This document shows, one piece after another, positions 2,496-30,940 of a DNA stretch of 32,000 bases. Source of the DNA: Opitutia bacterium KCR 482 (GTDB taxonomy: Bacteria; Verrucomicrobiota; Verrucomicrobiia; Opitutales; Intestinicryptomonadaceae); assembly GCA_029269845.2 (NCBI GenBank), contig CP149973.1:1170001-1202000 (forward strand). Reading direction: 5' to 3'. Every line of letters starts with the position of its first letter. The stretch's first letter is position 1. The translations under genes and the position numbers were made by a program. The notes beneath the pieces were generated by a model, which saw only the letters and a program-made list of their open reading frames with translations, was not told where the DNA came from and searched no databases.

Positions 2496-3245
2496 ATGAA
2501 CTGCCTGATTTTCCCAACCCCGCCCCCGTTCAAGCTTGCGCCCGACAGCCCCAAGCTCGAGCATGTCGAAAAAGTCCTAAAAGCCGCCGACGGCGGCACG
2601 GTCTTTGCGGGTCAGGCAAACGGCGGACTTTTTGTATGCAAATTCGAAAAGCTCGCCGACGGCGGCGCGACGCTCACGCCCATTTCCGACGCCCCGAATC
2701 CCGCCCCGCTCGCGGCGTCCGTCGCCGTCGCATTCGCCCGCCCGCAGATTGCCCAGCGCATGCTCTTCGAAGCCGCGTGTTTCGGTGTAGAAAATCTGCT
2801 ATTCTACGCCGCGTCGAAAGGCGAGGCAGACTACGCAAAAAGCGGGCTCTACGCGCGCGGCGAATACGCCAAATGGCTCGAAAAAGGCGCGGAGCAGGCG
2901 TGCGCGACTTCCATTCCCTCGTTCTCCACCGCGTCGAGCCTCACCGAAGCCGTCGAAATGCTCGACGCCCTCGCCCCGCGCGATTCCCTGAAAATCGCTC
3001 CCGACCTATACGAGGCAACTGCCGCTCTCCACGACGTTTTGGATAAATCTCCCGACCTCCACGTCAAGGGTATCCTCGGCAGCGAGCGCGGCTTCTCCAA
3101 CCCCGACCGCAACCTCCTCCGCCTCAACAACTACACCCTCGTCTCCCTCGGCAACCGCGTCCTCCGCACCGACACTGCCCTAATCGCCACCCTCAGCAGG
3201 GCAGGCTGCAGCCTGCACGGCACGGAACTTCGTTCCTTTCTGTGA
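2496..3245 (+). CDS. Hypothetical protein (249 aa)
   Basis: Long ORF with the GC3-rich codon usage of the neighbouring genes. I recognise no motif. The last ~15 codons are encoded by repeat copy A. Confidence 0.6.
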   Translation: MNCLIFPTPPPFKLAPDSPKLEHVEKVLKAADGGTVFAGQANGGLFVCKFEKLADGGATLTPISDAPNPAPLAASVAVAFARPQIAQRMLFEAACFGVENLLFYAASKGEADYAKSGLYARGEYAKWLEKGAEQACATSIPSFSTASSLTEAVEMLDALAPRDSLKIAPDLYEATAALHDVLDKSPDLHVKGILGSERGFSNPDRNLLRLNNYTLVSLGNRVLRTDTALIATLSRAGCSLHGTELRSFL

Positions 3246-3596
3246 TAATACGGCGCGGCTATAACCGCGCCTTTTCCCGATTAGTCCGTATTGCCTGCGG
3301 CAATTACTGGCGTTGGGATATGTGATATTGGGAAAGAAACAAATTAGAATAGACGCGCTTTGCGCGGAGAGAAAAAAAGCGGAAATCCGCAAAACATGGA
3401 ATTTCCGCTTTTTTGTAAACTTAACTTTTATCCCAGCGCAACTTAAAAATCTTCCGCGCCGTGCGCTGTAATTTTAGGGGCGTCAAAATGCCCCTATAAG
3501 AGTGGCTTTCCTGTATTCGCAGGGCGCGTGGCGTACTTTCGTACGCGAGCGGTCTGCGAATACAGGGAAACGCTGTTAGAGGGGCGTTTTCACGCC
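3201..3596. repeat. Copy A of a ~396-nt hairpin-dense repeat (candidate large structured ncRNA or structured MITE-like element)
   Basis: Collinear with 17851-18247. It has many stem-loops, several with compensatory differences between the copies, and no credible ORF. Confidence 0.7.
3372..3414. terminator. Intrinsic terminator hairpin inside repeat copy A (bidirectional in this copy)
   Basis: A7, then GCGGAAATCC/GGAATTTCCGC (10 bp with one bulge), then T6. Confidence 0.55.
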
Positions 3597-4768
3597 CCTA
3601 CCGAGGAGGCGATTTCATCACTTAGTGTGTGAGTGAAGTATTGCATTACCACTGCGTGCGACAACCTGCCCCAATGTTCGTCGTCGGAGCACGCAAGCGC
3701 GTATTTGTGCACAACTTCGTCCGCGGGTCTTTGGAATATAACCGTGTTGGAATACGGATTTTTCCACGCCTTCACGCCGCGTTTAAGCAGGGCGCGGTAG
3801 AAATATTCGGCGTTTTCGAGGACGGCGTTCGCCTGTTTGCGCATGCCCTCCCTGCCCGCGACGGATATGCGCCAGTAGAGTTTGAGGGCGTCGAAACCGC
3901 TTCTGGAACACGAAATTGTGGGAATCACCCCGTTAAGGTAGGGCACGGGGTTGTTTTGCACGTGCGACAAAATCTCCCTGCGGCAGACGAAAATTCCCGC
4001 GGGCTCGTTCAGCCCGTAGAACTTGTGCCCCGAAACGGCGATTGAGTCGAAGCCCATTACGCTTGCGTCGAGGATTTCGCGGGCTTTGGGGTCGTCGAGG
4101 AAAGGCAGATAGCCGCCAAAGAGCGCGGCGTCTAGGTGCTTGTAGACGAAGGGCGGATTGACTTTTTTGACGACCTCGTCGATTGCGCGCTGGTCGTCGA
4201 TAGCCCCCTTGAAAGTGCCGCCGATTGCGATTGCGATGAGCGCGGGACGGTCGGGCGCAAGCTTTTTTTCGAGATCGGAGACGTCCATTTCGCCCGACTC
4301 GTGGGCGCGGATTGTGCGCGTTTCGATGTCGAGAATGTCGCCGAGTTTCTTGACCGAATAGTGGGCCTCGTCCGAAACGTAGAGGACGGGCGGAATGTCC
4401 GACTTCGCCGCGAGCGCGGTTCTGCCGAAATAGACGCCGTGCATGTTGCCGTCGGTGCCGCCGTTTGAAATCACGCCCCAGTGGTCGCCGCCGAAGCCGA
4501 AGGAGTCGGCGACAAAGTCGATGCACGCGCGTTCGAACTCGTCGGTGTGGAGCATGTCCCACTGCGTTTTGTAGGGGTCGCCGACGTTGATGAGGGTGAG
4601 GTCGCACAGCCCCGTATCGACGAGCCACTGGTAGAAGCCCGCGAGGCTCGTTTCCTGGTCGAACGGATAGCCAAGCTGCTCGAACTTGCGCGCGCGCAGG
4701 TTTGCGGCAAGCGCATCGAGTTTCTTCATTGCTTCGGCATTCGGTTTTTTGAATCTTTCCATGGACAT
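3590..4768 (-). CDS. PLP-dependent group II decarboxylase, histidine decarboxylase-like
   Basis: SGHKF PLP-lysine motif, GGTDGNMHG, HYSVKK, and HLDAALFGGYLPF. The length (392 aa) and motif order match Gram-negative PLP histidine decarboxylases. Confidence 0.8.
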   Translation of the reverse strand: MSMERFKKPNAEAMKKLDALAANLRARKFEQLGYPFDQETSLAGFYQWLVDTGLCDLTLINVGDPYKTQWDMLHTDEFERACIDFVADSFGFGGDHWGVISNGGTDGNMHGVYFGRTALAAKSDIPPVLYVSDEAHYSVKKLGDILDIETRTIRAHESGEMDVSDLEKKLAPDRPALIAIAIGGTFKGAIDDQRAIDEVVKKVNPPFVYKHLDAALFGGYLPFLDDPKAREILDASVMGFDSIAVSGHKFYGLNEPAGIFVCRREILSHVQNNPVPYLNGVIPTISCSRSGFDALKLYWRISVAGREGMRKQANAVLENAEYFYRALLKRGVKAWKNPYSNTVIFQRPADEVVHKYALACSDDEHWGRLSHAVVMQYFTHTLSDEIASSVGA

Positions 4769-8920: not shown

Positions 8921-9033
8921 GCCCGCCGCGCCCAAAATTCCGACGCGCAGACGCGCAGAATACCCGTTTGCGCAAAACATACCCGTTTTTTAGTTTGGAC
9001 AAAATCGGGACAAAATGCGATAATCTTCAATCT

Positions 9034-12512: not shown

Positions 12513-12564
12513 AAAAAAACGCGATATTTCGGACAGCGTGAAAGTCCCAAATATCGCGTTTTTT
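12513..12564. terminator. Long bidirectional intrinsic terminator
   Basis: A7, then CGCGATATTT-C-GGAC-AGCGTGAAA-GTCC-C-AAATATCGCG, then T6. Confidence 0.7.
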
Positions 12565-12617
12565 CGCTAAACCTCCCGCGCGGCGGCTGCCGCGCTGTCG
12601 AGGCTTGCGAGGTTGCA

Positions 12618-12905
12618 CGCAGAAATGCGGCTTTGCAAAGCAAGGCGACGGGAGTGTACTCTCGTACATGACCGAAGCCGCGCGAGCGAAACGCATTTAT
12701 ACGCCGACCCCGCAAGCCCTCCTAAATCTCCTTGCACGCATTAAGCGTGCCATCACTATCCCGCAGAAATGCGGCTTTGCAAAGCAAGGCGACGGAAGAG
12801 TACTCTCGTACATGACCGAATCCGCGCAAGCGAAACGCATTTATACGCCGACCCCGCAAGCCCTCCTAAATCTTCTTGCACGCATTAAGCGTGCCAACAC
12901 TACCC
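12618..12905. repeat. Tandem repeat, 2 x 144 nt, structured units
   Basis: Units 12618-12761 and 12762-12905 differ at about 7 positions. The array abuts the stop codon of the lipoprotein gene at 12907. Confidence 0.9.
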
Positions 12906-12906
12906 C

Positions 12907-13902
12907 CTACTTTTCGGAGAATCCGTCCGGCAGGAACCATCGCGCCTTGTAGATTCTGCCGCCGTCAAGCGTCCCGACCCTGCGCGTTTTCGACGCGCCG
13001 AACGACACCGATGCGCTCCACCATTTGACTTCGGGTATGAGCGAAATTATTTCGCCGTCGGGCGACGAAAGCGACACGCTTTTTATCCGCCCCACCCCGC
13101 ACACGTCGGCGAATTTGCGCGAGACGGAATCGAAAAGCACAACGCCCTTATGCCCCGTAATAAACATGATTTTCGACGACGGCAACGGGTACAAATCGTG
13201 CCCGACTACCGCTTTTTCGGGCAGCGGATATTCGGCGGTTTTTTCGAGTTCGGGCGAATCGGAGTCGAAGTTGTATTTGTAGGCTTCGAGAGTCTTTTTG
13301 CCAAGCGCCCACAAAATTTTCTGCGAAGCGTCCCACACCACGCCGTGCGCAAATTCGAGCGGATACGTTTTTTTCGACGCGCACGGAACGCCCTCCGCCG
13401 CGTTTTTTGCCGCAAAAACCGTCAGCATGTTGCCGTCGGACGACGCAACCGCGATATTTCCGTCGGGAAGCAGGCATGCAGAATGCACGTTCCCGCCGGC
13501 GTACATAAAGCGAACAACGCGCGAATCGCGCACGCGCACGAGCGCAACGCCCCCTTTCGACGCCGCGACTAAAACGTGGGTCGCGCCGAGCACCGGCTTT
13601 GCGTCGCTGGGATTGCCGAACCATTCGGCGTATTTCACGGGCATTCCGTCCGCCTTCAAGGGGTTCCAGCTCCACAAAACGGCGTCGGGAGAATTCCAGT
13701 CTTTCGAGGAGTCCAAAAGCAGAATTCGGCGCGATGCCTGTTCGGAGGCGAGCACTGCGGGAAGATTTTTTACGTCCACCGCCGAAGCGTCCGACATCTT
13801 CGCCGAAACGAACACTGCGGTTTCCTCCAACGAACGCTCGCCGACGCACGCCGAAAGCAGCGATACCGACGCCGAGGCAAGAAGCAGCGCAATCAGTTTC
13901 AT
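12907..13902 (-). CDS. Lipoprotein (331 aa), probably beta-rich or propeller-like, hypothetical
   Basis: Internal ATG at 13902 gives MKLIALLLASASVSLLSAC with a canonical LSAC lipobox. This ATG overlaps the upstream gene's TGA (ATGA). The track ORF extension to 14580 is an Arg-rich out-of-frame overlap. Confidence 0.75.
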   Translation of the reverse strand: MKLIALLLASASVSLLSACVGERSLEETAVFVSAKMSDASAVDVKNLPAVLASEQASRRILLLDSSKDWNSPDAVLWSWNPLKADGMPVKYAEWFGNPSDAKPVLGATHVLVAASKGGVALVRVRDSRVVRFMYAGGNVHSACLLPDGNIAVASSDGNMLTVFAAKNAAEGVPCASKKTYPLEFAHGVVWDASQKILWALGKKTLEAYKYNFDSDSPELEKTAEYPLPEKAVVGHDLYPLPSSKIMFITGHKGVVLFDSVSRKFADVCGVGRIKSVSLSSPDGEIISLIPEVKWWSASVSFGASKTRRVGTLDGGRIYKARWFLPDGFSEK

Positions 13903-15988: not shown

Positions 15989-16822
15989 TCAGTGCTCCCT
16001 GAGGTATTTCAGATTTTTTTCAATAATCGGGAAGGAATCCCTGTATGTGCCGTCCTCTATCACGAAAAATCCGTCGAAGCCCTGCGAATCCACCTCTTTC
16101 AGAATCGCCTCCATGTCGAGAACGCCCTCGCCGTAGACCGCGCAACCGCTTTTGAGGTCGCCGAATTTCTGCTGGTCTTTGAGGTGTATTTCGATGAGCT
16201 TGCCGCGCACGCTCTTGAAACCGCCCACGACATCAAGCCCCGATCGCGACCACGCGCCGTTGTCGGCGCAAATGCCCACGTTTTTGTAGTCTTTGAGGAT
16301 AGTCATCAGGAACGCGGGGTCGAAGTGGCGGTAGGCGGGGTTGTCGGGCTTGCGCTCGTGCGAATGCAATGCCATTTGCAGTCCGTACTCGGCGCAGATT
16401 TTGTTCCAAATCGGAATGGTGTCCTCCATAGCCTCGGTGACGACGGTCCTTGCGCCCATTTCAGCCGCGAACTCGCAAACCTTGCGGATATCGGCTTCGG
16501 TCTTGCCACCCACGCAGCCGTACGAAACCATCTGAATGCCGTTGTCGGCGAGAAGTTTTTTTGCGAACGCCTTTTGCTCGGCGGTCATGTTGTGGCTGAA
16601 TTTTGCGTTGGGCAGTTTGTCGGAAAGAGACTGGCCGGGGTAGCATTCAACATACTTCACGCCCATCTTCGCCAATCGTTCGACGGAATAGTCGAATTTG
16701 TGGAAGTGCGTAGACCACATCTGAACCGCAATCTTGCGCGGCCGTTTTGTTTCGGCCGACATGCACGAGCAAAGCGCGAAAACCGCCGAAACCGCCGTCA
16801 AGACAAAGAGTAATTTTTTCAT
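15989..16822 (-). CDS. Exported sugar phosphate isomerase/epimerase family protein (xylose isomerase-like TIM barrel), paralog 1
   Basis: Signal peptide MKKLLFVLTAVSAVFALCSC. Clearly paralogous to 16974..17804 and 18265..19086 (shared KKLLADNGI, ALH(S/N)H and LHFKD/IHLKD motifs). Confidence 0.85.
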   Translation of the reverse strand: MKKLLFVLTAVSAVFALCSCMSAETKRPRKIAVQMWSTHFHKFDYSVERLAKMGVKYVECYPGQSLSDKLPNAKFSHNMTAEQKAFAKKLLADNGIQMVSYGCVGGKTEADIRKVCEFAAEMGARTVVTEAMEDTIPIWNKICAEYGLQMALHSHERKPDNPAYRHFDPAFLMTILKDYKNVGICADNGAWSRSGLDVVGGFKSVRGKLIEIHLKDQQKFGDLKSGCAVYGEGVLDMEAILKEVDSQGFDGFFVIEDGTYRDSFPIIEKNLKYLREH

Positions 16823-16916
16823 GGTAGCAGTCTACAAAACCGGCGCGGGGAATCAAGGCCAAACGTCGCGAACGGTGGAAAAGTCAAAATAGTGAAAGGA
16901 CGCGGCTACAGAGCAC

Positions 16917-16942
16917 AAAAAAGGCGCGGAATCGACCGCGCC
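16917..16942 (-). terminator. Rho-independent terminator after the 16974..17804 gene
   Basis: Read on the minus strand: GGCGCGG-TCGATT-CCGCGCC followed by T6. Confidence 0.7.
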
Positions 16943-16973
16943 CGAAATTTCGAAAGCCGAAGCGAAAGGATTT

Positions 16974-17804
16974 TTAGTGCGAGCGCAAGTACTCCACGCA
17001 CTCTTTGACTTCCGCGAGGTTGTTCGCAAAATTGTCCTCGTACTCAATCATGAAGTAGCCGTCGTATTTCTGGCGGTCGAGTTCCGCCAAGAGCGCGGGC
17101 AGGTCGAGAACGCCCTTGCCGTATGGAACGGTCTTCGCTTTGAGGTCGTCGAACTTGCTCATGTCCTTGAAGTGGAGCATTGCGATTTTCCCCTCCAAAA
17201 TCTTGTACGCCGCGACGCCCTGAATGCCCGAACGCGCGTAGTGCCCGTTGTCGGGGCATGCGTAGACGTTTTTATAGTCGCCGATTGCCGCGCGGGTGAT
17301 GTTCGGGTTGAAGTAGGAGTTGCGCTTTACGATGTCGGAAGCGTGGTTGTGGAGAGCCATTTTCAGACCGTACTGCTGGCAGTATTTGTCCCATAGCCCG
17401 ATTGTGCTGCCGACGGATTCCGTCAGAATCAGCGGAATGTCGAACTCTTTTGCGAATTCGCACATTTCCTTGATTTTCGCCTCTTCCGTGGGAGTGCGCA
17501 CGCCGAAGCTTGCGATTTTTATGCCGTTGTCGGCAAGAAGCTTTTTCAGATACGCCTTCTGCTCGGCATTCATCTCGGGCCCCGTCTTGACCTTCGGGAA
17601 TTTTGCGCTAAGCGCGGTGCTCGAAAGCCCGATTGCGTCCACCCCCATGTCTTTGAGAAGCGGAATAACCTCGTCGAGATTGCGCTTGTAGAACGTGAAC
17701 ATTGCCACGCCCACTTTGCGTTGCGGTTTTGTTTCCCCCTGCTTGCTCGGACAGCACCCGAACATAAGCAGAGCAGCCATCATGTATATCAATACTCTCT
17801 TCAT
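16974..17804 (-). CDS. Exported sugar phosphate isomerase/epimerase family protein (xylose isomerase-like TIM barrel), paralog 2
   Basis: ATG at 17804 gives MKRVLIYMMAALLMFGCC. The track start at 17825 is a GTG. Confidence 0.85.
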   Translation of the reverse strand: MKRVLIYMMAALLMFGCCPSKQGETKPQRKVGVAMFTFYKRNLDEVIPLLKDMGVDAIGLSSTALSAKFPKVKTGPEMNAEQKAYLKKLLADNGIKIASFGVRTPTEEAKIKEMCEFAKEFDIPLILTESVGSTIGLWDKYCQQYGLKMALHNHASDIVKRNSYFNPNITRAAIGDYKNVYACPDNGHYARSGIQGVAAYKILEGKIAMLHFKDMSKFDDLKAKTVPYGKGVLDLPALLAELDRQKYDGYFMIEYEDNFANNLAEVKECVEYLRSH

Positions 17805-17850
17805 ACGTTTGAGATATTGAACCACCCCAGCCTAAAAAATCAAGCCTAAA

Positions 17851-18247
17851 GCAGGCTGCAGCCTGCACGGCGTCGGAACTTCGTTCCTTTCTGTGATAAT
17901 GCGGCGCGGGTATACCCGCGCCTTTCCCCGTTTAGTCCGTATTGGCTTCGCCAATTACTGGCGTTGGGATTATTTTATGTTGGGAAGAAACGAATTAAAA
18001 TAGACGCGCTTTGCGCGGATAAATAAAAAACGGAAAACCTAAAACAAAGGTTCTCCGCTAACTCATTAACTAAACTTTTATCCCAGTGCACCCTAAAAAA
18101 CTTCGTGCGCCAGCACTCACTTATTAGGCGCGTCAAAATGCTTTCATAAGGGTGGCTTTCCTGTGCACGCAGGGCGCGTGGCGTACTTGACGTACGCGAG
18201 CGGTCTGCGGGTACAGGGAAACGCCCTTAGGGAAGTATTTTCACGCG
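17851..18247. repeat. Copy B of the ~396-nt hairpin-dense repeat
   Basis: Collinear with 3201-3596 in the same orientation. The flanking sequences are unrelated. Confidence 0.7.
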
Positions 18248-18264
18248 CCGTCTCGCGCCGTATC

Positions 18265-19086
18265 TTAATGGTTGCGCAGATAGTTCAGACACTCCTTGAC
18301 TTCCGCCAAGTTGTCTTCGAACTTTGTTTCGTACTCAATGATAAAGAAGCCCTTGTATCCCTGTCTGTCGAGCTCGGCGAGCATGCCCTTTGTGTCGAGA
18401 ACGCCCTTGCCGTAGACGGCGGGTTTGTTCTTTGCGCAGATTTCGGACAAATCCTTGAAGTGGACAGACGAGATTTTACCTTCGTAGGTTTTGAGGGCGT
18501 CAATCGGGTTTATGCCCGCGCGCGCCATGTGCCCGACGTCGGGGTTCATCTTGACGAATTCATAGTCTTTCACGAGCGGGAAAATATACGCGGGGTTCCA
18601 ATATTTGTTCGGGCCGTTGTGGTTGTGGATGCCCATTGTCACGCCGTACTTTTTGCCGACCTTTTCCCAAACGGGGAAAAGCCCTACGGGGCATTCGGTT
18701 AAAACGCGGTCGCAACCGAATTCCTTAACGAATTTGCAGAGGTCTTCGATTTCCTTTTCGTTGTTGGCGTACGCCACGCCGAAGCTTACGAGTTTGAGGT
18801 TCGCGTCTTTGAAGAGCTTTTTCATGAACGCCTTTTGCTCTTCGGTCATGTACTGGTTTGTGAGCACTCCGGGGAATTTGTCGCTGAGGCGCTGCTTGGG
18901 GTAGCACTCGACGCCGTCGAGACCCAAGTCTTTGACTTTATTGACGGCTTCCTCCAAGGTGAACTTGTTGAAAGTGTACATCTGCACCGCGACGTTGCGG
19001 TGTTTGGGTTGTTGTTCGGTTTTTTCGGACGACGCGCAGCCGAAAAGCAGCGTCGCCATTGCGAGTAAAGCGATAATTTTTTTCAT
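18265..19086 (-). CDS. Exported sugar phosphate isomerase/epimerase family protein (xylose isomerase-like TIM barrel), paralog 3
   Basis: Internal ATG at 19086 gives MKKIIALLAMATLLFGCASS, a lipobox-like LFGC. The track extension to 19227 adds a non-signal leader. Confidence 0.85.
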   Translation of the reverse strand: MKKIIALLAMATLLFGCASSEKTEQQPKHRNVAVQMYTFNKFTLEEAVNKVKDLGLDGVECYPKQRLSDKFPGVLTNQYMTEEQKAFMKKLFKDANLKLVSFGVAYANNEKEIEDLCKFVKEFGCDRVLTECPVGLFPVWEKVGKKYGVTMGIHNHNGPNKYWNPAYIFPLVKDYEFVKMNPDVGHMARAGINPIDALKTYEGKISSVHFKDLSEICAKNKPAVYGKGVLDTKGMLAELDRQGYKGFFIIEYETKFEDNLAEVKECLNYLRNH

Positions 19087-19228
19087 ACGGGTAGAAAAAA
19101 TGGCGTCGGGACGCAACTCTTGCAAGGCAATTTTGTCGAAACTGAAAAAAAATGCTTCACAAAACTGGAAAAAATCGAAAGATTGGAATCTACTTTTAGC
19201 AATCCATATAACAACAAAAAAAGGCACA

Positions 19229-20185
19229 ATGATGGACAGAAGACAATTCGCAAAGACGGCACTCGCGGCGGCGGCAACGGCAACATTCGCAAAGGGGGCG
19301 TTCGCGGCGGCGGACCCGAAGTCGATAGCATCGTCGACCGCGCCCTACAAATGCAAATTCTCGCCGAACCTCGGGCACTGCAAGGCGTCCACACAGGGGC
19401 TTTCGGAAGTCGACAAAATCAAGTTCTTCTACGACTGCGGCTTCCGCGGGCTCGAAGACAACGGCATGCCCAACCGCAAGGTCGAAATTCAGGAGGCGAT
19501 GGCGAAGCAGATGTCGAAGCTCGGCATGGAAATGGGCGTATTCGTCGCGCACGCCGAATGGAAAAACGCGTCGATGACGGGCAACAGGCTCGACCTTAGC
19601 AAACGCGTTGTAGACAAAAAGGCATGCCGCGCCTACTGGAAGGAAAAAATGGAAAAAGCTGTGGAAGTCGGCAAGCGCGTCAACGCGAAATGGTGCACGG
19701 TTGTCCCCGGACTCGAAGACCCGATGGTCGAACCCGAATACCAGTTTGCGAACGTCGTCGAACACCTCAAATGGTGCGCGGAAATCGTGGAAAAGGCGGG
19801 GCTGATTATCGTGCTTGAACCCCTCAACATCAAGAACCACCCCAGCCTCTGGCTCAAACGCATTCCGCAGGCGTACGCGCTCTGCAAGGCGGTCGGCAGC
19901 CCGAACGTCAAGATTCTCGACGACCTCTACCACCAGCAGATTACCGAGGGCAACCTCATCATGAACATCGACGCCGCGTGGGACGAAATTGCATACTTCC
20001 AGCTCGGCGACGTTCCGGGGCGCAAAGAACCGCTCACGGGCGAAATCAACTTCAAAAACGTATTCCAGCACATTTGGAACAAGGGCTACCGCGGAATCAT
20101 CGGCATGGAACACGGACAGAGCGACAGAACCGCCGCGGGCGACAAGAAACTGCTCGACGCCTACCGCGCAGTGGACGTCGCATAG
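19229..20185 (+). CDS. Tat-exported xylose isomerase-like TIM-barrel protein (hydroxypyruvate isomerase-like)
   Basis: Internal ATG at 19229 gives MMDRRQFAKTALAAAATATFAKGAFA, which contains the twin-arginine motif RRQFAK. Confidence 0.85.
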   Translation: MMDRRQFAKTALAAAATATFAKGAFAAADPKSIASSTAPYKCKFSPNLGHCKASTQGLSEVDKIKFFYDCGFRGLEDNGMPNRKVEIQEAMAKQMSKLGMEMGVFVAHAEWKNASMTGNRLDLSKRVVDKKACRAYWKEKMEKAVEVGKRVNAKWCTVVPGLEDPMVEPEYQFANVVEHLKWCAEIVEKAGLIIVLEPLNIKNHPSLWLKRIPQAYALCKAVGSPNVKILDDLYHQQITEGNLIMNIDAAWDEIAYFQLGDVPGRKEPLTGEINFKNVFQHIWNKGYRGIIGMEHGQSDRTAAGDKKLLDAYRAVDVA

Positions 20186-20213
20186 GCGGCGATTCCAAGC
20201 AGGCGTTTTCATG

Positions 20214-20404: not shown

Positions 20405-22594
20405 ATGAGAAAGAAACTGCCGACACTCGCGGCGGCGTTGCTCTTCGCCGCCCTGCCCGCGCTGGGCAACATGGAAACGGTTTTCGAGGAAGACTTCGAA
20501 AATCCCGAAACGAGCAAATTCGCGGAAGTCGCAAAATTCGAGCCTGAAATCGCCACGGAAGTCGCGGGCAGCAAGGCGATATCGGGCAACGGCTCGATGA
20601 TGTTCGACACGCGCGGAAAAAACTGGGGCTGGCAATCTATATGCACCATTCCGCTGAACAAGGAGGGAATTTACAGACTCTCGCTAACATGCAAACTGCT
20701 CGAAACCGAAAATAACAAACACGTGGCAGTCGCAGTCGCCATGCGCGAAATCAAGAACGGGGAAAAGACGCGCATCTCCGCCCGCTGGATTCAGAAAGAC
20801 AACAAAAAGGACCATAAAAAAGCGCAGAGAATAGAAGTCGCCGGCAGGCTTCCGTCAAATTCGGGCGAATTCGACATCGTCGCCGAGCGCGGAATTAAAA
20901 TCGAAATCGACGACATCAAAATCGAAAAATTCACCGCCGACCCCAAGGGCGCGTGGATGTTCGACAACGACGCGTTCATCGGCATGACATTCACGCCCGC
21001 CAACCCCGAATTCCACAACTTCAAGGAGAAATTCCTGAACTACTCGAAGGAGGAGTTCTTCCCGTTCATCGACAAGTACGGACAATTCAAACACAAAGAC
21101 TGGATTGACAAAATCACCTGCGACGAAGACTTCGCAAAACGCATGGAGGCGGAAAAGAAGTTCTACAAGAAAATCGGAAAAATCCCCAACCGCGACCAGT
21201 TCTGCGGGCTCGTTCGGGAAGACCAAAAATACGAAGCTACGGGGCACTTCCGCGTGCAGAAAATCGACGGCAAATGGTGGTTTATCGACCCCGAGGGCAA
21301 CCTGTTCTGGTCGTTCGGCATAACCTGCGTCGGCAACCTCGACCTCACGCCGATTACCGACCGCGAATCGTACTTCGAAGACGTCTCCGACAAACGCTTC
21401 ATGAAAAAATCGAACTGGGGACTGCACTACTATAAAGACAAAGTTTACGACTCCTACGGATTCCTCGAACGCAACCTCGTGGCGAAATACGGCGACAATT
21501 ACAGGGAAGTTTACGGAGACGTCTCCGACGAGCGCATGCGCATGTGGGGCTTCACAACCTACGGGTGCTGGTCGCAACACTACATCATAAGCAGGGGCAA
21601 CTTCCCGTTCACGGCGATTGCGACGTCGGGCAAGGCGGAAAGCTTCAAGACCGACGTAAAAATACACGCATATTGGCGCGACTTCCCCGACTTCTTTACG
21701 CCCAATTTCGAGGAAAACACCTTCAAACGCGTAGCGCAGCTTTCCAAACTCATAAACATGCCCGCATGCGTCGGCGTGTTCGTGGACAACGAACTTCCGT
21801 GGCAGTTCAAGCCGCTGACGACAATCAGGGCGCTGCTCGGCTGCCCCGCGACACAGTATTCGAAAATCGAATTCCGCAAGGATTTGGAGGCTAAATACGG
21901 CACAATCGAAAAACTCAACGAAGCGTGGAACGCAAAATACGCAAGCTGGGACGACTTCCTCGCCAAGCGCGACTTCTTCCCGAGAACAAAGGCGGGCGAA
22001 ACCGACATGCTCGCATTCGAGGAGAAAATCTACGTCCGCTACTTCAAGACCTGCCGCGACGCAGTAAAGGCGGCGGCTCCGAATACGCTGTATCTCGGCT
22101 GCCGCTTCGCGTGGAGAAATACGCTTGTAGAGAAGGTCGCCTCGCGCTACTGCGACGTCATCAGCTACAATGTATACTCCGACAACATTACAGCATTCTC
22201 GCCCGTGAAGGGCTGCGAAGACAAACCGTCGCTCATCGGCGAATTCCACTTCGGGAACACCGACAAGGGCGTGTACGGCGGCGGGCTCAATCCGCGCGTG
22301 ACGGTCGAAGCCCGCAAAAAGGCGTTCGAAAACTACGCAATCAGCGCATTCGAAAACCCGAATGTCGTGGGAGCGCACTGGTTCCAATGGTTCGACCTTT
22401 GCACGGCGGGACGCTTCAACGCAGCAAACTACGCAATCGGCTTCGTGGACATCTGCGACACGCCCGACTACGTGATAGTGAAAGCCGCCCGCAAGCTCTC
22501 GCAAAAGATGTATAAACTAAGACTCAAAGGCGGACAAAGCACAACCCAGAGCGTGGAATCGACAAAAGCCGTCATCGACCTCGACGAAAAATAA
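20405..22594 (+). CDS. Exported TIM-barrel glycoside hydrolase, paralog of 9034..11079
   Basis: Signal peptide MRKKLPTLAAALLFAALPALG. Shared blocks include FFPFIDKYGQFK, ATGHFRVQK(I/V)DGKWW, FVDNE, IGEFHFG and CTAGRF. Confidence 0.85.
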   Translation: MRKKLPTLAAALLFAALPALGNMETVFEEDFENPETSKFAEVAKFEPEIATEVAGSKAISGNGSMMFDTRGKNWGWQSICTIPLNKEGIYRLSLTCKLLETENNKHVAVAVAMREIKNGEKTRISARWIQKDNKKDHKKAQRIEVAGRLPSNSGEFDIVAERGIKIEIDDIKIEKFTADPKGAWMFDNDAFIGMTFTPANPEFHNFKEKFLNYSKEEFFPFIDKYGQFKHKDWIDKITCDEDFAKRMEAEKKFYKKIGKIPNRDQFCGLVREDQKYEATGHFRVQKIDGKWWFIDPEGNLFWSFGITCVGNLDLTPITDRESYFEDVSDKRFMKKSNWGLHYYKDKVYDSYGFLERNLVAKYGDNYREVYGDVSDERMRMWGFTTYGCWSQHYIISRGNFPFTAIATSGKAESFKTDVKIHAYWRDFPDFFTPNFEENTFKRVAQLSKLINMPACVGVFVDNELPWQFKPLTTIRALLGCPATQYSKIEFRKDLEAKYGTIEKLNEAWNAKYASWDDFLAKRDFFPRTKAGETDMLAFEEKIYVRYFKTCRDAVKAAAPNTLYLGCRFAWRNTLVEKVASRYCDVISYNVYSDNITAFSPVKGCEDKPSLIGEFHFGNTDKGVYGGGLNPRVTVEARKKAFENYAISAFENPNVVGAHWFQWFDLCTAGRFNAANYAIGFVDICDTPDYVIVKAARKLSQKMYKLRLKGGQSTTQSVESTKAVIDLDEK

Positions 22595-22633
22595 TCCCCA
22601 AGGCAGCCACACAAATTTTCCACCAAACAAAAA

Positions 22634-22660
22634 CGTCCGATTTTCATCGGACGTTTTTTT
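22634..22660 (+). terminator. Rho-independent terminator
   Basis: CGTCCGAT-TTTC-ATCGGACG followed by T7. Confidence 0.8.
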
Positions 22661-22778
22661 CGCCTTTTGCAGAAACGATAGCCTGCAAAATACAGGCGAA
22701 TTGAACAATGAAAGCCCAAAACGCAATCCGCGCACAAAAAGCTTTATGTAAAAGTGAAAAATCTTATAGATTTTCCGC

Positions 22779-23162
22779 ATGAAAATAGACCATGTCGCAA
22801 TTTTTGTTAGGAATTTAGAGGCTACTAAAAATTTCTACGTTAAATATTTCAACGCCGCCGTAAACAATAAGTACCGCAACAACAAGACTTTGCTTGAAAC
22901 CTATTTTCTCTCCTTCGACTCCGGAACGCGGCTTGAAATAATGTCGCGCCCCGACTTATTTGAAGGCTCAAATGAATTATTAAGAACGGGATTGATTCAT
23001 CTTTCCTTCAAACTTGGCTCGGAAAAATTAGTTGATTCAAAAGTAAAACAACTGGAATCGGACGGATACAAAATTATCAGCAATCCCCGCACAACAGGCG
23101 ACGGCTATTACGAAGCATGTGTTTCCGACAATGAAGGCAATTTCATTGAAATCATTGCATAG
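22779..23162 (+). CDS. VOC-family (glyoxalase/bleomycin-resistance/dioxygenase fold) protein
   Basis: MKIDHVAIFVRNLEATKNFY is a typical VOC N-terminus. The protein is 127 aa and the gene is visibly AT-richer than its neighbours. Confidence 0.8.
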   Translation: MKIDHVAIFVRNLEATKNFYVKYFNAAVNNKYRNNKTLLETYFLSFDSGTRLEIMSRPDLFEGSNELLRTGLIHLSFKLGSEKLVDSKVKQLESDGYKIISNPRTTGDGYYEACVSDNEGNFIEIIA

Positions 23163-23340
23163 CTCCATTCCCCGCAACCACAGCATTAGCGCGCCCGCGC
23201 AGTTGTCTTCGGCGGGCTTGCCGTTTTTACTTTGACAATATCGGCATGCGTTCAATAGAATCTAATTTAATTTGGATAGTGGCGATGGCGCATTTTAATG
23301 CTTGGCGCAAAACCGAAGGCAATCGGCAAAAACTCTATAT

Positions 23341-23844
23341 ATGATAAACAAAAGGCTCTCAAAAATATCCGTTGGCGCAATAACGGCATCGGTCATTCTG
23401 CTCGCACTGGCTCATACTTCATATGCAAGAAATGCCGACGAAATAAAGCCGCAAAGCATTTGCGCGGCGTCGGGGAAGCCCTATCAAAAAGCAATTAAAA
23501 CCGATTCCGGAAGCGTGCAAGCGTGGATTCTATCGGGCAAGGCTGACGAATCTGTTGAAATGACGCTCAAAGAAGCACCCGAAGGATTCCGCGGTCTCAG
23601 AATAGAAATTGAAACAGCTCCGCTCGAAAATGCAGACGCGTCGAAAGAGAACGTTTACAGAGCCGTATCTTACCAGATAGACCCGACGTCGGGAAAGGAA
23701 ACAAACAAAATCAAAAGCCCGTTCGTAAGGGGAAAGATATCAGGCACTCCGTTTAAGGGCAAAAAAATGGAGTTGGAATCATGCTATCCGGCAAAAGCGG
23801 GCTTAGCAGTTAAAATAAGAATCGAGCGCTTGTACCGTAAGTAA
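23341..23844 (+). CDS. Secreted hypothetical protein (167 aa)
   Basis: ATG at 23341 gives a signal peptide ending LLALAHTSYA. The gene is AT-rich. Confidence 0.6.
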   Translation: MINKRLSKISVGAITASVILLALAHTSYARNADEIKPQSICAASGKPYQKAIKTDSGSVQAWILSGKADESVEMTLKEAPEGFRGLRIEIETAPLENADASKENVYRAVSYQIDPTSGKETNKIKSPFVRGKISGTPFKGKKMELESCYPAKAGLAVKIRIERLYRK

Positions 23845-23958
23845 AGATAGAAAAGGGTAATGGGAATGTTTGAAACGGGGGAATGGGAAAAGGGTTGGAT
23901 TGGTTGTAATCGCGCGACGGTGGGTACGGTTTTTTTGTGTTTTTCGTAATCGGCCGCG

Positions 23959-24039
23959 TTCGGCGAAAGGATTGCCGTTTTCTTGCCGCGGCTTGGCGGA
24001 AGGGTTGCCGCCCTCTTGCCGCAATTTGGCGGAAGTTTG
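23959..24039. repeat. Short tandem repeat, about 2.5 copies, period 33-34 nt
   Basis: TTCGGCGAAAGGATTGCCGTTTTCTTGCCGCGGC, then TTGGCGGAAGGGTTGCCGCCCTCTTGCCGCAAT, then TTGGCGGAAG. Confidence 0.7.
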
Positions 24040-24149
24040 TTTTTTTTAGTGAGCCGCGGAGGTTCGGCGGGGGTACCGTTTTCAAAAGGGTTGCTTGCGC
24101 CTCGCGGTGTTTTTTCGTCCGCCCTCCGCGTGTGTTGCGGTTGTCGCGT

Positions 24150-25361
24150 CTATCGCGAAATCAGCCACTCGATGCGCGAGACGAAATCCTCGCAGTCGGG
24201 TTGGTTGTCGTTGCCGAGCGTCAGCGTCCGCGTGCCCGTCGCAAGGTCTATCGACTCCGACTGCACCTGCGCGTCGATTCCCGCGAGGTTGTCGCGGCTG
24301 TCCGCAATATTCAGGCGTTTACCCGCGTAGCGCATCCGCAGGTTGCGGTCGAAGAGCACAACGCTGCCCGTGTATTTGTCGCGGTTGACAATCGACTTCA
24401 ACTGCGCGAGCAGCCCCTGCGCGTCGACCGTTTTATTCGAAAAATTGTCGTCGGAAATGTCTATCGAAACGACCACCACGTTGCGCTGATTCGCCGAAAC
24501 TCCCTCGGCGGCGCAGTCGTCGAAGCCTTTGTAGTGCAGCCACGAACCCGTGCCGCCCGTCGTATTGCCCGTCTTGTTTTTGACGAGTCGCAGAATCACG
24601 CGCCGTTTGCGCTTGATGTCCTTTGTAAGAGAAATGTCGGTGCATATGCCGACGGGCACGCTCACGACTGCGCACTTTTGCGCCGCCTTAATCGAGAGCG
24701 TCGGCTTGTCGGCCGAGTAGTCGAAGGCGGACATCAGTTCGGGGTGCCACTTTGCGATGCTCGAAAAAATATCGGCGAACATTGGCGACTCCTTTTCCTC
24801 GTACGGAAGGAGGAGCTGCGAGTCGAAGTCGATGCCCGATTCGGGAATGTCGAAGAGCGCGGCGTTGTCGGTTTTAGCGAACGCCGCCAACACGTCATTT
24901 TTGAAGAACTGCTCCGCCGACCAGCTTTCATACTGCGGTTCCTCGTACTGCACCGGTCCGCCCGTGGAGCTCCACCAGTACTCGGTTTTTTTCCCGAAAA
25001 GCTGGACTTTCGTGAGGTCGCGGACGTTCGGAATGTTGCCGATTAGAATCGGCGGGAACCACGAATTTTGGTACGGAGTGGATTCGAACACGTCCCAGAA
25101 GCCTTTTGCGGAGAAGTTCACGGAGTCGCCGTTTGCCGATTTGCCGACGGTCGGCTCTTGGAGAAAGCCCGCGAAAATCCGCGCGTCGCCGTCGAAGACC
25201 TCGACGCGTGTTTCCGCGTCGCGCCAAGCGTTGCGGAAGCCGAGCTTGGGCGTGGAGAACGAAAATTCGTCCGCCGCGAAGCTGTTGAACGTGAGCATTG
25301 CCGACTCGCAGCCCCATTGGGGGAGAGTCCGTTTTTCGCCGCCTATTTTAAGAGTCGTCAT
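24150..25361 (-). CDS. Phage tail protein downstream of the tape measure gene (distal-tail or hub/gpD-like)
   Basis: The start overlaps the tape measure stop (ATGA at 25358-25361). The N-terminal region pattern and the gene's position fit a Dit/hub protein. The family call is positional. Confidence 0.6.
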   Translation of the reverse strand: MTTLKIGGEKRTLPQWGCESAMLTFNSFAADEFSFSTPKLGFRNAWRDAETRVEVFDGDARIFAGFLQEPTVGKSANGDSVNFSAKGFWDVFESTPYQNSWFPPILIGNIPNVRDLTKVQLFGKKTEYWWSSTGGPVQYEEPQYESWSAEQFFKNDVLAAFAKTDNAALFDIPESGIDFDSQLLLPYEEKESPMFADIFSSIAKWHPELMSAFDYSADKPTLSIKAAQKCAVVSVPVGICTDISLTKDIKRKRRVILRLVKNKTGNTTGGTGSWLHYKGFDDCAAEGVSANQRNVVVVSIDISDDNFSNKTVDAQGLLAQLKSIVNRDKYTGSVVLFDRNLRMRYAGKRLNIADSRDNLAGIDAQVQSESIDLATGTRTLTLGNDNQPDCEDFVSRIEWLISR

Positions 25362-28630: not shown

Positions 28631-28642
28631 TTTTTGTTTGAA

Positions 28643-28954
28643 TTAGAGGTTTGCCTTCATCGCGTCGTTGCCCGCGGCGATAATGTTGCCGAGGCTTTCG
28701 GCGGCGGCCGCGTCGAAGCGCGGAATGAATAGCGGCGCGAGGTCTTCGGCGGTCGGGTATTCGGCGCGGGAGTCGCCTTTGAGCATCGCCCACGCGAGAA
28801 TTACCACCGTCGAAATTCTCGCCGCCGCAGAGCCGCGCTTGTCGGCGAGCGCCTGCATTTCCTCGGCGGTGCCGCCCGCGCGTTCGTAGCGGAAGTACGC
28901 CTGCGCGTCCCAGGCGACCGCGATTTTCTTTCCGTTGATTTCGATTTCCGTCAT
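28643..28954 (-). CDS. Putative tail assembly chaperone (103 aa)
   Basis: It lies immediately upstream of the tape measure gene. ATG at 28954 is preceded by GGAAAGGAA. The N-terminus MTEIEINGKKIAVAWD resembles chaperone families. The call is mostly positional. Confidence 0.55.
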   Translation of the reverse strand: MTEIEINGKKIAVAWDAQAYFRYERAGGTAEEMQALADKRGSAAARISTVVILAWAMLKGDSRAEYPTAEDLAPLFIPRFDAAAAESLGNIIAAGNDAMKANL

Positions 28955-29015
28955 TTTCAAATTCCTTTCCGTTTGAAAAAATCCGCCGCGGGGCATTGCC
29001 CTGCGGCGGCGTATT

Positions 29016-29735: not shown

Positions 29736-29750
29736 TTGTCGGTTCCTTTC

Positions 29751-30458: not shown

Positions 30459-30483
30459 TTTTGTTTTTTTGAGGTTCGAAATT

Positions 30484-30936: not shown

Positions 30937-30940
30937 CGGT

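Follow-up and report, generated by a model that had tools for sequence, protein, structure and literature searches.

Interspersed repeats of the REP, BIME and REPIN kind are, to our knowledge, known almost solely from proteobacteria and a few firmicutes. They are non-coding and extragenic, lie at the 3' ends of genes and between convergent genes, and display reshuffled hairpin modules, tandem arrays, covarying stems and lineage-specific expansion, all of which recur in the element described here. REP hairpins at most about 15 nt from a stop codon reportedly affect translation termination and mRNA stability (Liang, Rudd and Deutscher 2015). ERIC/IRU, Correia (NEMIS), BOX and RUP elements resemble our element in size (100-400 nt), in having no coding capacity and in forming long hairpins when transcribed, and BOX elements also resemble it in being modular. 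Such repeats can bring terminators, promoters and RNase sites to a locus and can alter the expression of neighboring genes. IS200/IS605 elements and PATEs share with it the lack of inverted repeats and target duplications, hairpins near their ends and a single active strand. Integron attC sites are, like its long hairpin, imperfect palindromes by a stop codon in which the folded strand is complementary to the gene and structure is conserved more than sequence.

Here, we describe two members (copies A and B) of a dispersed, modular, non-coding and hairpin-rich repeat family of gut Opitutia. They lie in the window, by which we mean the whole 32,000-nt stretch of Opitutia bacterium KCR 482 DNA that was analyzed. 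The family is previously undescribed and lineage-specific, and among known repeats it most resembles bacterial interspersed mosaic elements and REPINs.

Results

Two copies in unrelated gene contexts

Both copies were located where a preliminary description of this DNA had placed them, and their coordinates and an identity of ~83-87% were re-derived (83% over 400 nt by blastn; mean column identity of 87%).

3201..3600, plus strand: copy A, complete element (modules M0-M4), filling the entire gap between two convergent genes
17851..18251, plus strand: copy B, complete element, also present in an independent assembly (L029)
18252..18264, plus strand: copy B junction, in which 10 nt of the element terminus (CTCGCGCCGT) are repeated and followed by ATC and then by a stop codon at 18265-18267

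The shared sequence spans 3201-3598/3600 in copy A and 17851-18249/18251 in copy B. Homology between the copies ends abruptly at the left and right element edges, and the flanks are unrelated. Copy A does lie between convergent, unrelated genes, as had been described, namely an RsmE-type RNA methyltransferase gene (2496-3245, plus strand) and a PLP-dependent decarboxylase gene (3590-4732/4768, minus strand), and copy B lies between two minus-strand xylose-isomerase-like TIM-barrel genes (ATG at 17804; stop at 18265-18267). Both ORFs flanking copy A terminate inside the element, at TGA 3243-3245 and at TCA 3590-3592 (TGA on the minus strand), the latter being the decarboxylase stop codon within TTTTCACGC that was pointed out earlier. 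At copy B, the neighbor's stop codon is 14-16 nt past the element end; in sister strains, the interval between element and stop at this site consists of ATC alone (L022) or is absent (L023). The left edge of copy B could fall anywhere in 17823-17851. A UBA4654 locus (L011) has similar sequence to the left of the first hairpin, and this same stretch contains the neighbor's conserved promoter. Copy B and the 12.6-kb array described below are not assembly artefacts, because both are reproduced in L029, which is 99.9% identical over 10 kb.

Terminal inverted repeats and target-site duplications had been reported as missing from both copies, and our comparisons agree. Local alignment of the left 60 nt with the reverse complement of the right 60 nt scored 7-8, equivalent to the mean of shuffled sequences (7.0-7.1), no flush direct repeat of 2-10 nt was found at copy A or copy B, and no target-site duplication was seen by eye at L011.

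The window contains three tandem xylose-isomerase-like genes as well as GH42-like genes at 8968-11079 and 20405-22594, a setting in which copies A and B might be taken for remnants of a segmental duplication of a gene neighborhood. That origin has next to no probability and is refuted by A/B homology that stops at the element edges, by flanking genes that belong to different families, and by copies at other loci, where, in two genomes, the unit has at least eight further unrelated genes as neighbors. The earlier view that the unit is not part of a duplicated neighborhood stands: eight contigs of Opitutia bacterium UBA4654 and a third site in a sister strain have nothing but the element in common with the window, the genes beside the element are unrelated housekeeping genes, and orthologous sites in related species are empty. 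The unit had also been called autonomous, which is apt for an independent dispersed unit and inapt for a mobile element; since no protein is encoded, the element would be non-autonomous if mobile.

Modules on opposite strands

The element is composed of modules that work on opposite strands, with M2 predicted to serve the minus-strand gene and M4 folding on the plus strand.

17851..17866 (copy A 3201-3216), plus strand: M0, the palindromic first hairpin GCAGGCTGCAGCCTGC, an optional or variable module
17874..17970 (copy A 3223-3319), plus strand: M1
18003..18058 (copy A 3352-3408), minus strand: M2, a small hairpin GACGCGCTTTGCGCGG, then a hairpin with a minus-strand U-run
About 3372-3379 (copy A) and 18019-18028 (copy B), minus strand: U-run of M2
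18073..18124 (copy A 3423-3474), plus strand: M3, with invariant AACTTTTATCCCA, TAAAAAnCTTC and a small covarying hairpin (GCGC..GCGC / GTGC..GCAC)
18125..18251 (copy A 3475-3600), plus strand: M4, a 125-nt hairpin that folds on the plus strand, antisense to the adjoining gene
16923..16942, minus strand: ordinary terminator of the gene at 16974-17804, with the stem GGCGCGG/CCGCGCC as in M1

M0 is swapped for, or lengthened by, other small GC hairpins in L007, L011, L015 and L021. M1 consists of a hairpin GGAACTTCGTTCC, a stop-rich segment TTTCTGTGATAAT, a terminator-like hairpin GGCGCGGnTATAnCCGCGCC followed by TTT(T/C), a further hairpin (GTATTGsCTkCGsCAATTAC) and GGCGTTGGGAT. Its third hairpin has one compensatory pair, and the co-directional upstream ORFs of copy A and L015 end within it. 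A long-range helix joining M3 with GGCGTTGGGAT of M1 was predicted, but the G.U and A.C evidence was mixed and we treat the helix as unsupported. A search of copies A and B for sigma-70-like promoters on the plus strand gave one weak site in A and none in B.

In M2, a terminator scan matched 18059-18029 on the minus strand, with the tail TTTTATTTAT. All 11 sequence variants fold more stably on the minus strand, and over 13 folded segments (two of which are not M2 hairpins) the minus-strand and plus-strand sums are -263 vs -187 kcal/mol, with 38 vs 8 G.U pairs. As in intrinsic terminators, the strand of the upstream, minus-strand gene has a GC/AU hairpin and then a U-run, and the wobble pairs favor that strand. 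M2 thus has the make-up of a strand-specific intrinsic terminator for the converging gene, with a termination activity that is predicted from sequence. M1 likewise resembles intrinsic terminators in having a GC hairpin plus UUU(U). Unlike a plain intrinsic terminator, M2 is embedded in a 400-nt repeat together with a far larger hairpin constrained on the opposite strand.

The preliminary description had noted that M1 has a 7-bp stem, GGCGCGG/CCGCGCC, in common with a terminator (16923-16942 in our analysis). This is the only other hairpin in the window with that stem, and the 7-mer itself occurs 23 times. The related suggestion of an origin of the element in part from terminator modules is supported by the central hairpin, a predicted strand-specific intrinsic terminator, and by the GGCGCGG hairpin with its short T-run.

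The M4 hairpin

M4 combines freely covarying stems with invariant internal sequence (GGCTTT, CAGGGCGCGT, AGCGGTCTG and GAAACGC; as RNA, GGCUUU / CAGGGCGCGU / AGCGGUCUG / GAAACGC). The RNAalifold consensus fold has 45 pairs, 17 of which show compensatory changes on both sides. Paired cells amount to 99.1%, compared with 85.7% in shuffles, and doubly changed cells number 79, compared with 25.6; in neither case did any of 500 shuffles reach the observed value. Slid controls were 26-57% paired. A census of plus-strand pairs counted 510 Watson-Crick, 70 G.U and 0 A.C pairs. M4 is under constraint to pair on the plus strand, although pairing of the plus strand as single-stranded DNA would yield the same G.T/A.C asymmetry as pairing of RNA. 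The hairpin has no U-run. Its base is GGSGCG/CGCSCC, the flanking TAAC/TGAC is unpaired with the other arm, and the right boundary of the element is 2 nt beyond this base. Most copies end in ..CSCCGT, and the only hairpins with CTAC behind them are those of copy A and one L011 remnant. M4 stems fall into four discrete types that are common to two genomes.

These properties raise the question of whether a trans-acting structured RNA is encoded in multiple copies by M3-M4 or by the plus strand as a whole, in which case the repeats would be gene copies and no mobile or recombining element. Very strong folding (z -7.6 to -11.8), textbook covariation around invariant internal loops, G.U pairs on the plus strand, the shared stem types and a -10-like TAnAAT box ahead of M2 on the plus strand would all suit such a gene. 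We nevertheless regard it as rather improbable, given that the central module is made for the opposite strand, that the plus strand has no conserved promoter or U-tract terminator, and that truncated, chimeric and tandem units occur. Furthermore, strains with 98% identical flanks carry different alleles, sister species are without the element at the same sites, and its position is tied to the stop codons of neighbors.

A dispersed family

Copies were sought with two patterns, one in a metagenome scan and one in a genome scan. The pattern scans yielded the third site (L007, sister strain) and 10 matches on the eight UBA4654 contigs, for a family total of at least 14 sites or units, a census that is biased because every UBA4654 copy was found through an M4 pattern. 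Profile matches include full, partial and tandem units as well as decayed copies. The unit is ~400 nt long, and copies differ by frequent 1-nt indels. L013 has solo tandem M4 units; the L013 and L016 arrays include units that are intact on the right and shortened on the left, as well as internal units without a right end. The repeated units contain no ORF. A Mixta sp. match (L008) was made by pattern only and was dismissed as chance because neither the profile nor the covariance model finds it.

A diverged relative lies within the window itself.

12598..12905, plus strand: diverged relative, in which one complete M4-like hairpin (12600-12720) begins a tandem array of 2 x 144 nt (12618-12905)
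12514..12564, no strand assigned: bidirectional terminator formed by a perfect 21-bp hairpin with an A-run on one side and a T-run on the other; in the minus-strand direction it lies downstream of the 12.6-kb array

The relative was matched by the covariance model at 39.5 bits (E 1.8e-7) and has a fold of -61.5 kcal/mol (z -5.9). Its array ends 1 nt short of the stop codon (12907-12909) of a converging DUF6528 gene. Separately, we observed that the 21-bp hairpin is positioned like M2 in copies A and B.

Rfam at gathering thresholds (families covered include group II intron domains, HEARO/OrfB RNAs, 6S, tmRNA and RNase P) matched no part of the element, either in the window or at 12 loci, and its sole match in 83 kb of related loci was a tRNA; with E up to 10, copy A returned only chance-level matches to miRNA-type hairpins. 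No tRNA or tmRNA was detected in the window. Sensitive blastn against phage and plasmid collections gave no match. Three patterns were run on viral contigs, where the structural pattern and one other gave no match and the remaining one gave five matches in GC-rich coding sequence, which we consider chance. Our search of the literature found no account of this repeat family.

Position at stop codons and absence of ordinary terminators

The abutment of the right end against the stop codon of a convergent gene, first remarked on in the window, recurs at 9 of the 11 independent sites, with the right end -12 to +16 nt from the stop. Offsets from the stop are -11, -8, +2, +2, +2, +3 and +16, and two more stops lie in nested terminal remnants. 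The binomial tail for this abutment is p ~3e-9, even with insertions restricted to intergenic DNA. The abutted genes are unrelated (decarboxylase, sugar isomerase-like, Asd, HemB, PyrD, HisB, GH42-like and binding protein), and at one copy the adjoining feature is a tRNA-Tyr gene terminator. In the minus-strand reading, a weak (T/A)NAC motif precedes GGSGCG at the junctions. The position of the right end fits junction erosion and direct targeting of the stop-codon region alike.

Empty sites, which the preliminary description had envisaged in relatives, were found, and these have an ordinary terminator. In L024, where the gene is 85% identical in protein and synteny is the same, the empty site is a spacer of 141 nt that carries a terminator of its own. 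Downstream of Asd orthologues (94, 90 and 87% identity), spacers of 62-133 nt hold terminators and no element. Occupied sites are without an ordinary terminator and have the predicted M2 terminator ~190-220 nt past the stop codon, whereas empty orthologous sites have a terminator 20-30 nt past it. In these comparisons, the element stands where ordinary gene terminators would be. The decarboxylase orthologues in L019 and L020 are no true empty sites because their synteny differs; they place the native decarboxylase C-terminus within a few codons of the element. L025-L027, from a species with a 75% orthologue, were rejected as carriers, their 670-800-nt spacer being unrelated sequence.

An imperfect palindrome of attC-like size right after a stop codon, folding on the strand complementary to the gene and conserving structure over a variable sequence, invites comparison with an integron attC-like recombination site, with gene plus M4 as the cassette. 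This identity is extremely improbable. No R''/R' core sites (RYYYAAC ... GTTRRRY) pair at the hairpin base, no ORF-cassette array or integrase lies beside any copy, and the only Phage_integrase match is in an unrelated locus without the element. The neighbors are housekeeping genes that are found without M4 in relatives, and the repeated units are devoid of ORFs. Housekeeping neighbors and non-complementary ends likewise separate the element from retron msr-msd.

Allele turnover among strains

Site B has five different alleles in six assemblies of one species, with flanks that are 97.7-99.9% identical, and site A has two. In four of five variant alleles, divergence runs from a variable point (17850/17975, 18050 and 18175 at site B; 3275 at site A) through to the right junction, while the exchange in the L006 allele is limited to the tip half of M4. 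Between element and stop codon, different strains have 13, 3 or 0 nt. Rearrangement joints are repeatedly located at the M4 tip, between ..GGCGTAC and GCGG.. (L009, L014, L015, L016 and L022), and contigs often break at the element (L012, L013, L015, L016, L018 and L030). Terminal remnants of 10, 13 and 36 nt are nested beside the flank in copy B, L010 and L011.

A polarity of this kind could also arise by RNA-mediated, SINE-like copying. The template would be a plus-strand RNA ending at the M4 base, reverse transcription would be primed at a nick by the gene end and run leftwards, and resolution would use either end joining or homology to a copy already in place. A 3' hairpin constrained as RNA with its base 2 nt from the element boundary, replacement tracts anchored at the right end with variable left ends, the nested remnants by the flank, arrays with complete right and shortened left ends (L013 and L016) and the absence of inverted repeats are in keeping with this route. 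It is highly improbable all the same: no reverse transcriptase was found near any copy, target duplications and A-rich tails are missing, internal array units are without a right end, and the positions of many joints are not random but repeat at particular module borders. Breakage of the M4 palindrome would give the same polarity without a new enzyme. L010 was rejected as 5'-truncated evidence of retroposition, its apparent truncation being a decayed full copy with internal deletions. We also think it quite improbable that the element is a self-propagating terminator cassette copied via plus-strand RNA, with M4 and its invariant internal loops as the handle for a trans-acting enzyme starting at the RNA 3' end, beside the ends of genes.

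Comparison with known repeats and mobile elements

The element agrees with MITEs in being small, non-coding and multi-copy with filled and empty sites, and departs from them in its lack of terminal inverted repeats and target-site duplication. Correia and RUP elements are bounded by terminal inverted repeats and by duplicated target sites (TA or other), whereas the element has neither feature, and none of the ERIC/IRU, Correia, BOX and RUP elements is similar to it in sequence. With REP, BIME and REPIN repeats it shares variable palindrome combinations and tandem arrays that are extragenic at gene 3' ends. M4 is a long hairpin as REPINs (~100 nt) are, but its 125 nt enclose invariant internal sequence and are not two inverted 35-nt REPs, and a REP is a 20-40-nt palindrome with GTAG/CTAC. 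Further differences from this group are a 400-nt composite structure with opposite-strand modules, replacement of the native terminator, occurrence in Verrucomicrobiota, no consistent GTAG/CTAC and no RAYT gene in the fetched loci. Unlike IS200/IS605 elements, the copies have no conserved left target tetranucleotide (plus-strand left flanks are CAGG, TAAA, GCAG and TCCT) and no TnpA/TnpB nearby, and M4 is much longer. The paired hairpins of PATEs have no equivalent either, as M0 is a 16-nt palindrome with no similarity to the 125-nt M4.

These comparisons bear on whether the element is of REPIN/PATE type and is moved as single-stranded DNA by an HUH (Y1) transposase encoded elsewhere (RAYT or IS200/IS605 TnpA). 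M4 would then be the hairpin recognized on one DNA strand, and cleavage would take place at the right end. Such movement would explain the absence of inverted repeats and target duplication, the hairpins at or near both ends, strand-specific pairing that tolerates G.T and excludes A.C, the solo tandem M4 units of L013, the extragenic location at gene 3' ends, the mosaic arrays and the copy expansion in only some lineages. The weak (T/A)NAC motif beside the right end on the minus strand, and the CTAC with which copy A and one L011 remnant end, as REPs do, point the same way. We consider it unlikely, however. The folded-strand left flanks have no common tetranucleotide, the (T/A)NAC motif is on the non-folding strand, GTAG/CTAC is missing from most copies, M4 is 3-4x longer than the hairpins of REPs or of IS200 ends, and for a DNA hairpin 70 wobble pairs is a high number. 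In addition, no Y1 transposase (including RAYT), TnpB or other mobility gene is present among the Pfam-called genes in the ~200 kb fetched around copies and orthologous sites.

Discussion

We believe that the element is probably a BIME/REPIN-like mosaic repeat that acts as a terminator cassette and whose long hairpin is a recombination hot spot. With M2 as the minus-strand terminator, the transcript of the converging gene would extend past the stop codon, include M4 and M3 in antisense and terminate at M2. The element could in this way be a portable two-way terminator or insulator cassette, in which M2 would halt the converging gene while M1 and M4 would keep plus-strand transcription out of it.

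M4 is a long, near-perfect palindrome at the element edge and may be a hot spot for breakage and recombination, as the locations of the joints suggest. Repair from other copies would swap the right part of the element over a variable length, and the same repair would make or remove M3-M4 units and nibble at the unique flank. Nibbling would continue until selection on coding sequence halted the loss, so that the right end would come to lie against the stop codon or a few codons inside it. Palindrome breakage does not account for the first arrival of the family at a new site.

Conclusions

The family is a structurally richer counterpart of REP, BIME and REPIN repeats in uncultured gut Verrucomicrobiota. 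It offers a clean natural case of a repeat in lieu of the native terminators of housekeeping genes, in which the strand logic of the modules is legible from wobble pairs. Its hypervariable alleles at fixed sites, which differ between 98% identical strains, can serve as strain markers and are a known cause of metagenome contig breaks. A 125-nt hairpin with invariant internal sequence must be read by some protein or RNA. If this hairpin drives copying, it would represent a new mobilization mechanism, and if the cassette is copied through RNA, the family would count as a SINE-like retroposon of bacteria, or else as a novel mobile element, guided by a hairpin, that specifically seizes the position of a gene's terminator.

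Results

The element is an independent, dispersed unit

Copies A and B of the non-coding, hairpin-rich element align over about 400 nt with 83% identity by blastn (mean column identity, 87%), and their homology cuts off sharply at both the left and right ends.

3201-3600, copy A, flanked by a plus-strand RsmE-type methyltransferase gene and a minus-strand gene for a PLP-dependent decarboxylase
3590-3592, TCA within the conserved TTTTCACGC of copy A, the decarboxylase stop codon
17851-18251, copy B, flanked on either side by a minus-strand, xylose-isomerase-like TIM-barrel gene
18265-18267, stop codon located 14-16 nt past the right end of copy B

The arrangement of the flanking genes at both copies and the location of the copy A stop codon inside the conserved motif are as given in the preliminary description, which had placed the copy B stop codon about 18 nt further right. 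It had also reported an absence of terminal inverted repeats and target-site duplication, and our comparison of the element's ends agrees on both counts. Copy B recurs in an independent assembly with 99.9% identity across 10 kb and is therefore not an assembly artefact.

A metagenome scan using a pattern tolerant of structure returned two loci from a single strain, namely the site B orthologue (L006, flanks 98.8% identical) and a copy at a third site, downstream of the aspartate-semialdehyde dehydrogenase (Asd) gene (L007). A second pattern, restricted to the long hairpin's invariant loop sequences, matched eight contigs of the metagenome-assembled genome Opitutia bacterium UBA4654 (Verrucomicrobiota) at 10 places; a single match in Mixta was judged to be a chance hit. 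Profile searches recovered complete, decayed and contig-end-cut units together with tandem arrays. The element is the sole sequence that the UBA4654 contigs have in common with the window. This bears out the earlier proposal of an independent unit rather than a duplicated gene neighborhood: A and B are not the sole copies within a larger segmental duplication, as further sites exist and homology stops at the element's ends.

Searches of Rfam, of tRNA and tmRNA models, and of phage, plasmid and viral collections gave no match to the element. Copies were not found in approximately 60 kb of sister-species sequence, and the family has therefore expanded in particular lineages. Contigs end in or within ~60 nt of the element at L012, L013, L015, L016, L018 and L030, so that these metagenome assemblies are repeatedly broken by the family.

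Modular anatomy and strand-specific constraint

The unit is composed of modules M0 to M4, from left to right.

M0, small palindromic hairpin, optional, with other GC hairpins in its place in some copies
M1, hairpin GGAACTTCGTTCC followed by stop-rich TTTCTGTGATAAT; hairpin GGCGCGGnTATAnCCGCGCC then TTT(T/C); third hairpin containing a single compensatory pair
M2, hairpin GACGCGCTTTGCGCGG, A-run, second hairpin
M3, invariant AACTTTTATCCCA, TAAAAAnCTTC, small hairpin with covariation
M4, hairpin of 125 nt

An extra 31-nt hairpin (GGCGCrAGkyGCGCC..CCTA), flanked by a direct repeat of CGGAACTTCG, occurs in L007 (9525-9600), L011 (2165-2198), L015 and L021, and has the appearance of a minor insertion or duplication within M1.

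Over the whole unit, each strand folds much more stably than shuffled sequence (z -6.7 to -11.8); folding strength by itself does not tell which strand matters, whereas wobble pairs do. In a 13-copy alignment, the M4 consensus comprises 45 pairs, 17 of which have changed on both sides. Paired cells amounted to 99.1% versus 85.7% in column shuffles, and doubly changed cells to 79 versus 25.6, values attained by none of 500 shuffles; sliding the partners reduced pairing to 26-57%. The 585 cells included 510 Watson-Crick pairs, 70 G.U pairs as read on the plus strand, no A.C pairs and 5 others. M4 is therefore under selection for pairing on the plus strand, which is antisense to the abutted gene. 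Its stems fall into four types common to both genomes, and its internal sequence is invariant (GGCTTT, CAGGGCGCGT, AGCGGTCTG, GAAACGC). Neither a promoter nor a U-tract could be identified for a plus-strand RNA of M4.

The M2 hairpin shows the reverse preference, being more stable on the minus strand in 11 of 11 sequence variants. Across 13 segments, two of which are not M2 hairpins, folding energies sum to -263 kcal/mol on the minus strand versus -187 on the plus strand, with 38 versus 8 G.U pairs. This preference, along with a U-run directly after the minus-strand hairpin, marks M2 as a predicted intrinsic terminator of the converging gene, i.e. the minus-strand gene whose stop codon adjoins the element's right end. 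Past its stop codon, the transcript of that gene would cross M4 and M3 in antisense and terminate at M2.

With a covariance model built on the M4 hairpin, a diverged relative was detected in the window itself. It comprises a complete hairpin (12600-12720) at the head of a tandem array of two 144-nt units (95% identical); the array ends at 12905, 1 nt before the stop codon of a DUF6528 gene that converges on it. The layout is that of the element, with a strong, bidirectional terminator (a perfect 21-bp hairpin) at 12514-12564.

The element adjoins gene ends at the position of the native terminator

At 11 independent sites, stop codon position was measured from the element's right end (...CSCCGT).

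Offset of the stop codon from the element's right end (nt)
Copy A, decarboxylase, -8
L009, HemB, -11
L012, anti-sigma-like, +2
L013, PyrD, +2
L014, HisB, +2
L007, Asd, +3
Copy B, isomerase-like, +16
L010, GH42-like, stop in or just past short, nested terminal remnants of the element
L011, binding protein, stop in or just past short, nested terminal remnants of the element
L016, tRNA-Tyr, right end meets the terminator U-run of the tRNA gene

The stop codon falls within -12 to +16 nt at 9/11 sites (binomial tail ~3e-9, even with insertions limited to intergenic DNA). Abutment of a converging gene's stop codon, noted at the first two copies, extends to these sites. Where the left neighbor is co-directional (copy A and L015), its ORF ends within M1, and the left edge of copy B adjoins the downstream gene's conserved promoter; thus, functional sequence hugs the element on both sides. 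A weak (T/A)NAC motif beside the right end raises the possibility that the stop-codon region may be a direct target.

The gene starting at 17804 has a promoter-like TTGAnT-N17/18-CAwTAT that ends 9 nt before the ATG and is conserved at the filled site (17805-17845) and the empty one (L024, a related species, 3934-3966). This short gap suggests that the mRNA is leaderless or nearly so.

Related species lack the element at site B and the Asd site, and have plain terminators instead, as the search for empty sites proposed in the preliminary description brought out. The orthologous site B spacer (protein identity 85%, gene order kept) is 141 nt long with a plain terminator 28 nt past the stop codon, and homology to the window restarts ~17 nt upstream of the next ATG. 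Asd orthologues that are 94, 90 and 87% identical have spacers of 62-133 nt without the element, each with a plain terminator 20-30 nt past the stop. The element therefore sits where the native terminator would be. The last few codons of the adjoining gene are element-derived at copy A (..SVGA-stop versus ..DDIAG-stop or ..DIATLK-stop in relatives) and at L007 (..HGA-stop versus ..SEDAKK-stop).

Two other spacers also vary. In the species whose orthologues show 75% identity (L025, ~4100-4500, compared with L026 and L027), unrelated non-coding sequence of ~700-800 nt occupies the same intergenic position. Its assemblies differ there by a 128-nt insertion/deletion in which a unit, CTTCTCCGCGCnCGCGnGGGGCGAA..., is repeated, and another repeat family may be present at a like site. 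L037 (5322-5812) and L036 (5323-5410), whose Asd proteins are identical, have a downstream intergenic gap that differs in length by ~400 nt. This presence/absence polymorphism gave no profile match and hence is not the element.

Alleles are replaced rapidly, with a bias to the right end

Five alleles of site B occur among six assemblies of the window's species, even with flanks that are 97.7-99.9% identical, and two were seen at site A. Binned identity is 92-100% in the flanks versus as low as 23-80% in the element. In four of the five variant alleles, divergence extends to the right junction, starting at 17850/17975 (L021), 18050 (L023) and 18175 (L022) at site B and at 3275 (L017) at site A. 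In the fifth (L006), exchange is confined to the tip half of M4 (18150-18225), with both arms altered together. L022 and L023 carry an extra M3-M4 unit. The window, L006 and L021 have CTCGCGCCGT-ATC between element and stop codon; L022 has ATC alone, and in L023 the spacer is absent. Module joints repeat at the M4 tip (..GGCGTAC|GCGG..) in five loci.

Other features of the window

An ORF at 25358-28630 encodes a phage tape-measure protein (PhageMin_Tail, E 1e-48), and synteny with the L006 strain (98.8% identical) ends at 22594; the right third (~22600-32000) is therefore probably a prophage or phage-like insertion specific to the strain. Four xylose-isomerase-like TIM-barrel paralogues (15989-19116 and 19233-20186), three of them a minus-strand tandem and the fourth divergent from these, are flanked by two GH42-like paralogues (8968-11079 and 20405-22594) that are 70-82% identical in patches. 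Gene order in this region is kept in related species.

Discussion

The nearest known kinds are REP/BIME/REPIN and the MITE-like ERIC, Correia and BOX repeats. The element resembles BIME/REPIN in location, modularity and covariation, but differs from MITEs in lacking both inverted repeats and a duplication, from REPs in lacking a short GTAG-bearing palindrome, and from IS200/IS605 derivatives in lacking a conserved target and having dissimilar end hairpins. Nor does it fit the definition of an attC site, a retron or any Rfam family. To our knowledge, no repeat of the BIME/REPIN kind is known from Verrucomicrobiota, and literature searches found none described.

First arrival at a site could be due to an HUH/RAYT-type enzyme working on the folded strand, to RNA-mediated copying from the 3' hairpin, or to microhomology that the terminator-like modules of the element share with native terminator hairpins, all of which are candidates. 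For subsequent turnover, we propose that M4, a long near-perfect palindrome at the element's edge, may be the starting point of breaks or template switches. Repair from other copies may extend leftwards via homologous modules; rightward repair would meet unique sequence, so the junction would be re-made each time and the flank slowly lost, until coding sequence blocks further loss. Breakage at M4 would account for tract polarity, arrays, nested terminal remnants and stop-codon abutment without a dedicated enzyme.

This non-coding, modular repeat family occupies the position of the native terminator, carries a predicted terminator on the gene's strand and a large hairpin constrained on the opposite strand, and undergoes fast allele replacement biased to the right end. 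We infer that the element would serve as a portable two-way terminator/insulator.
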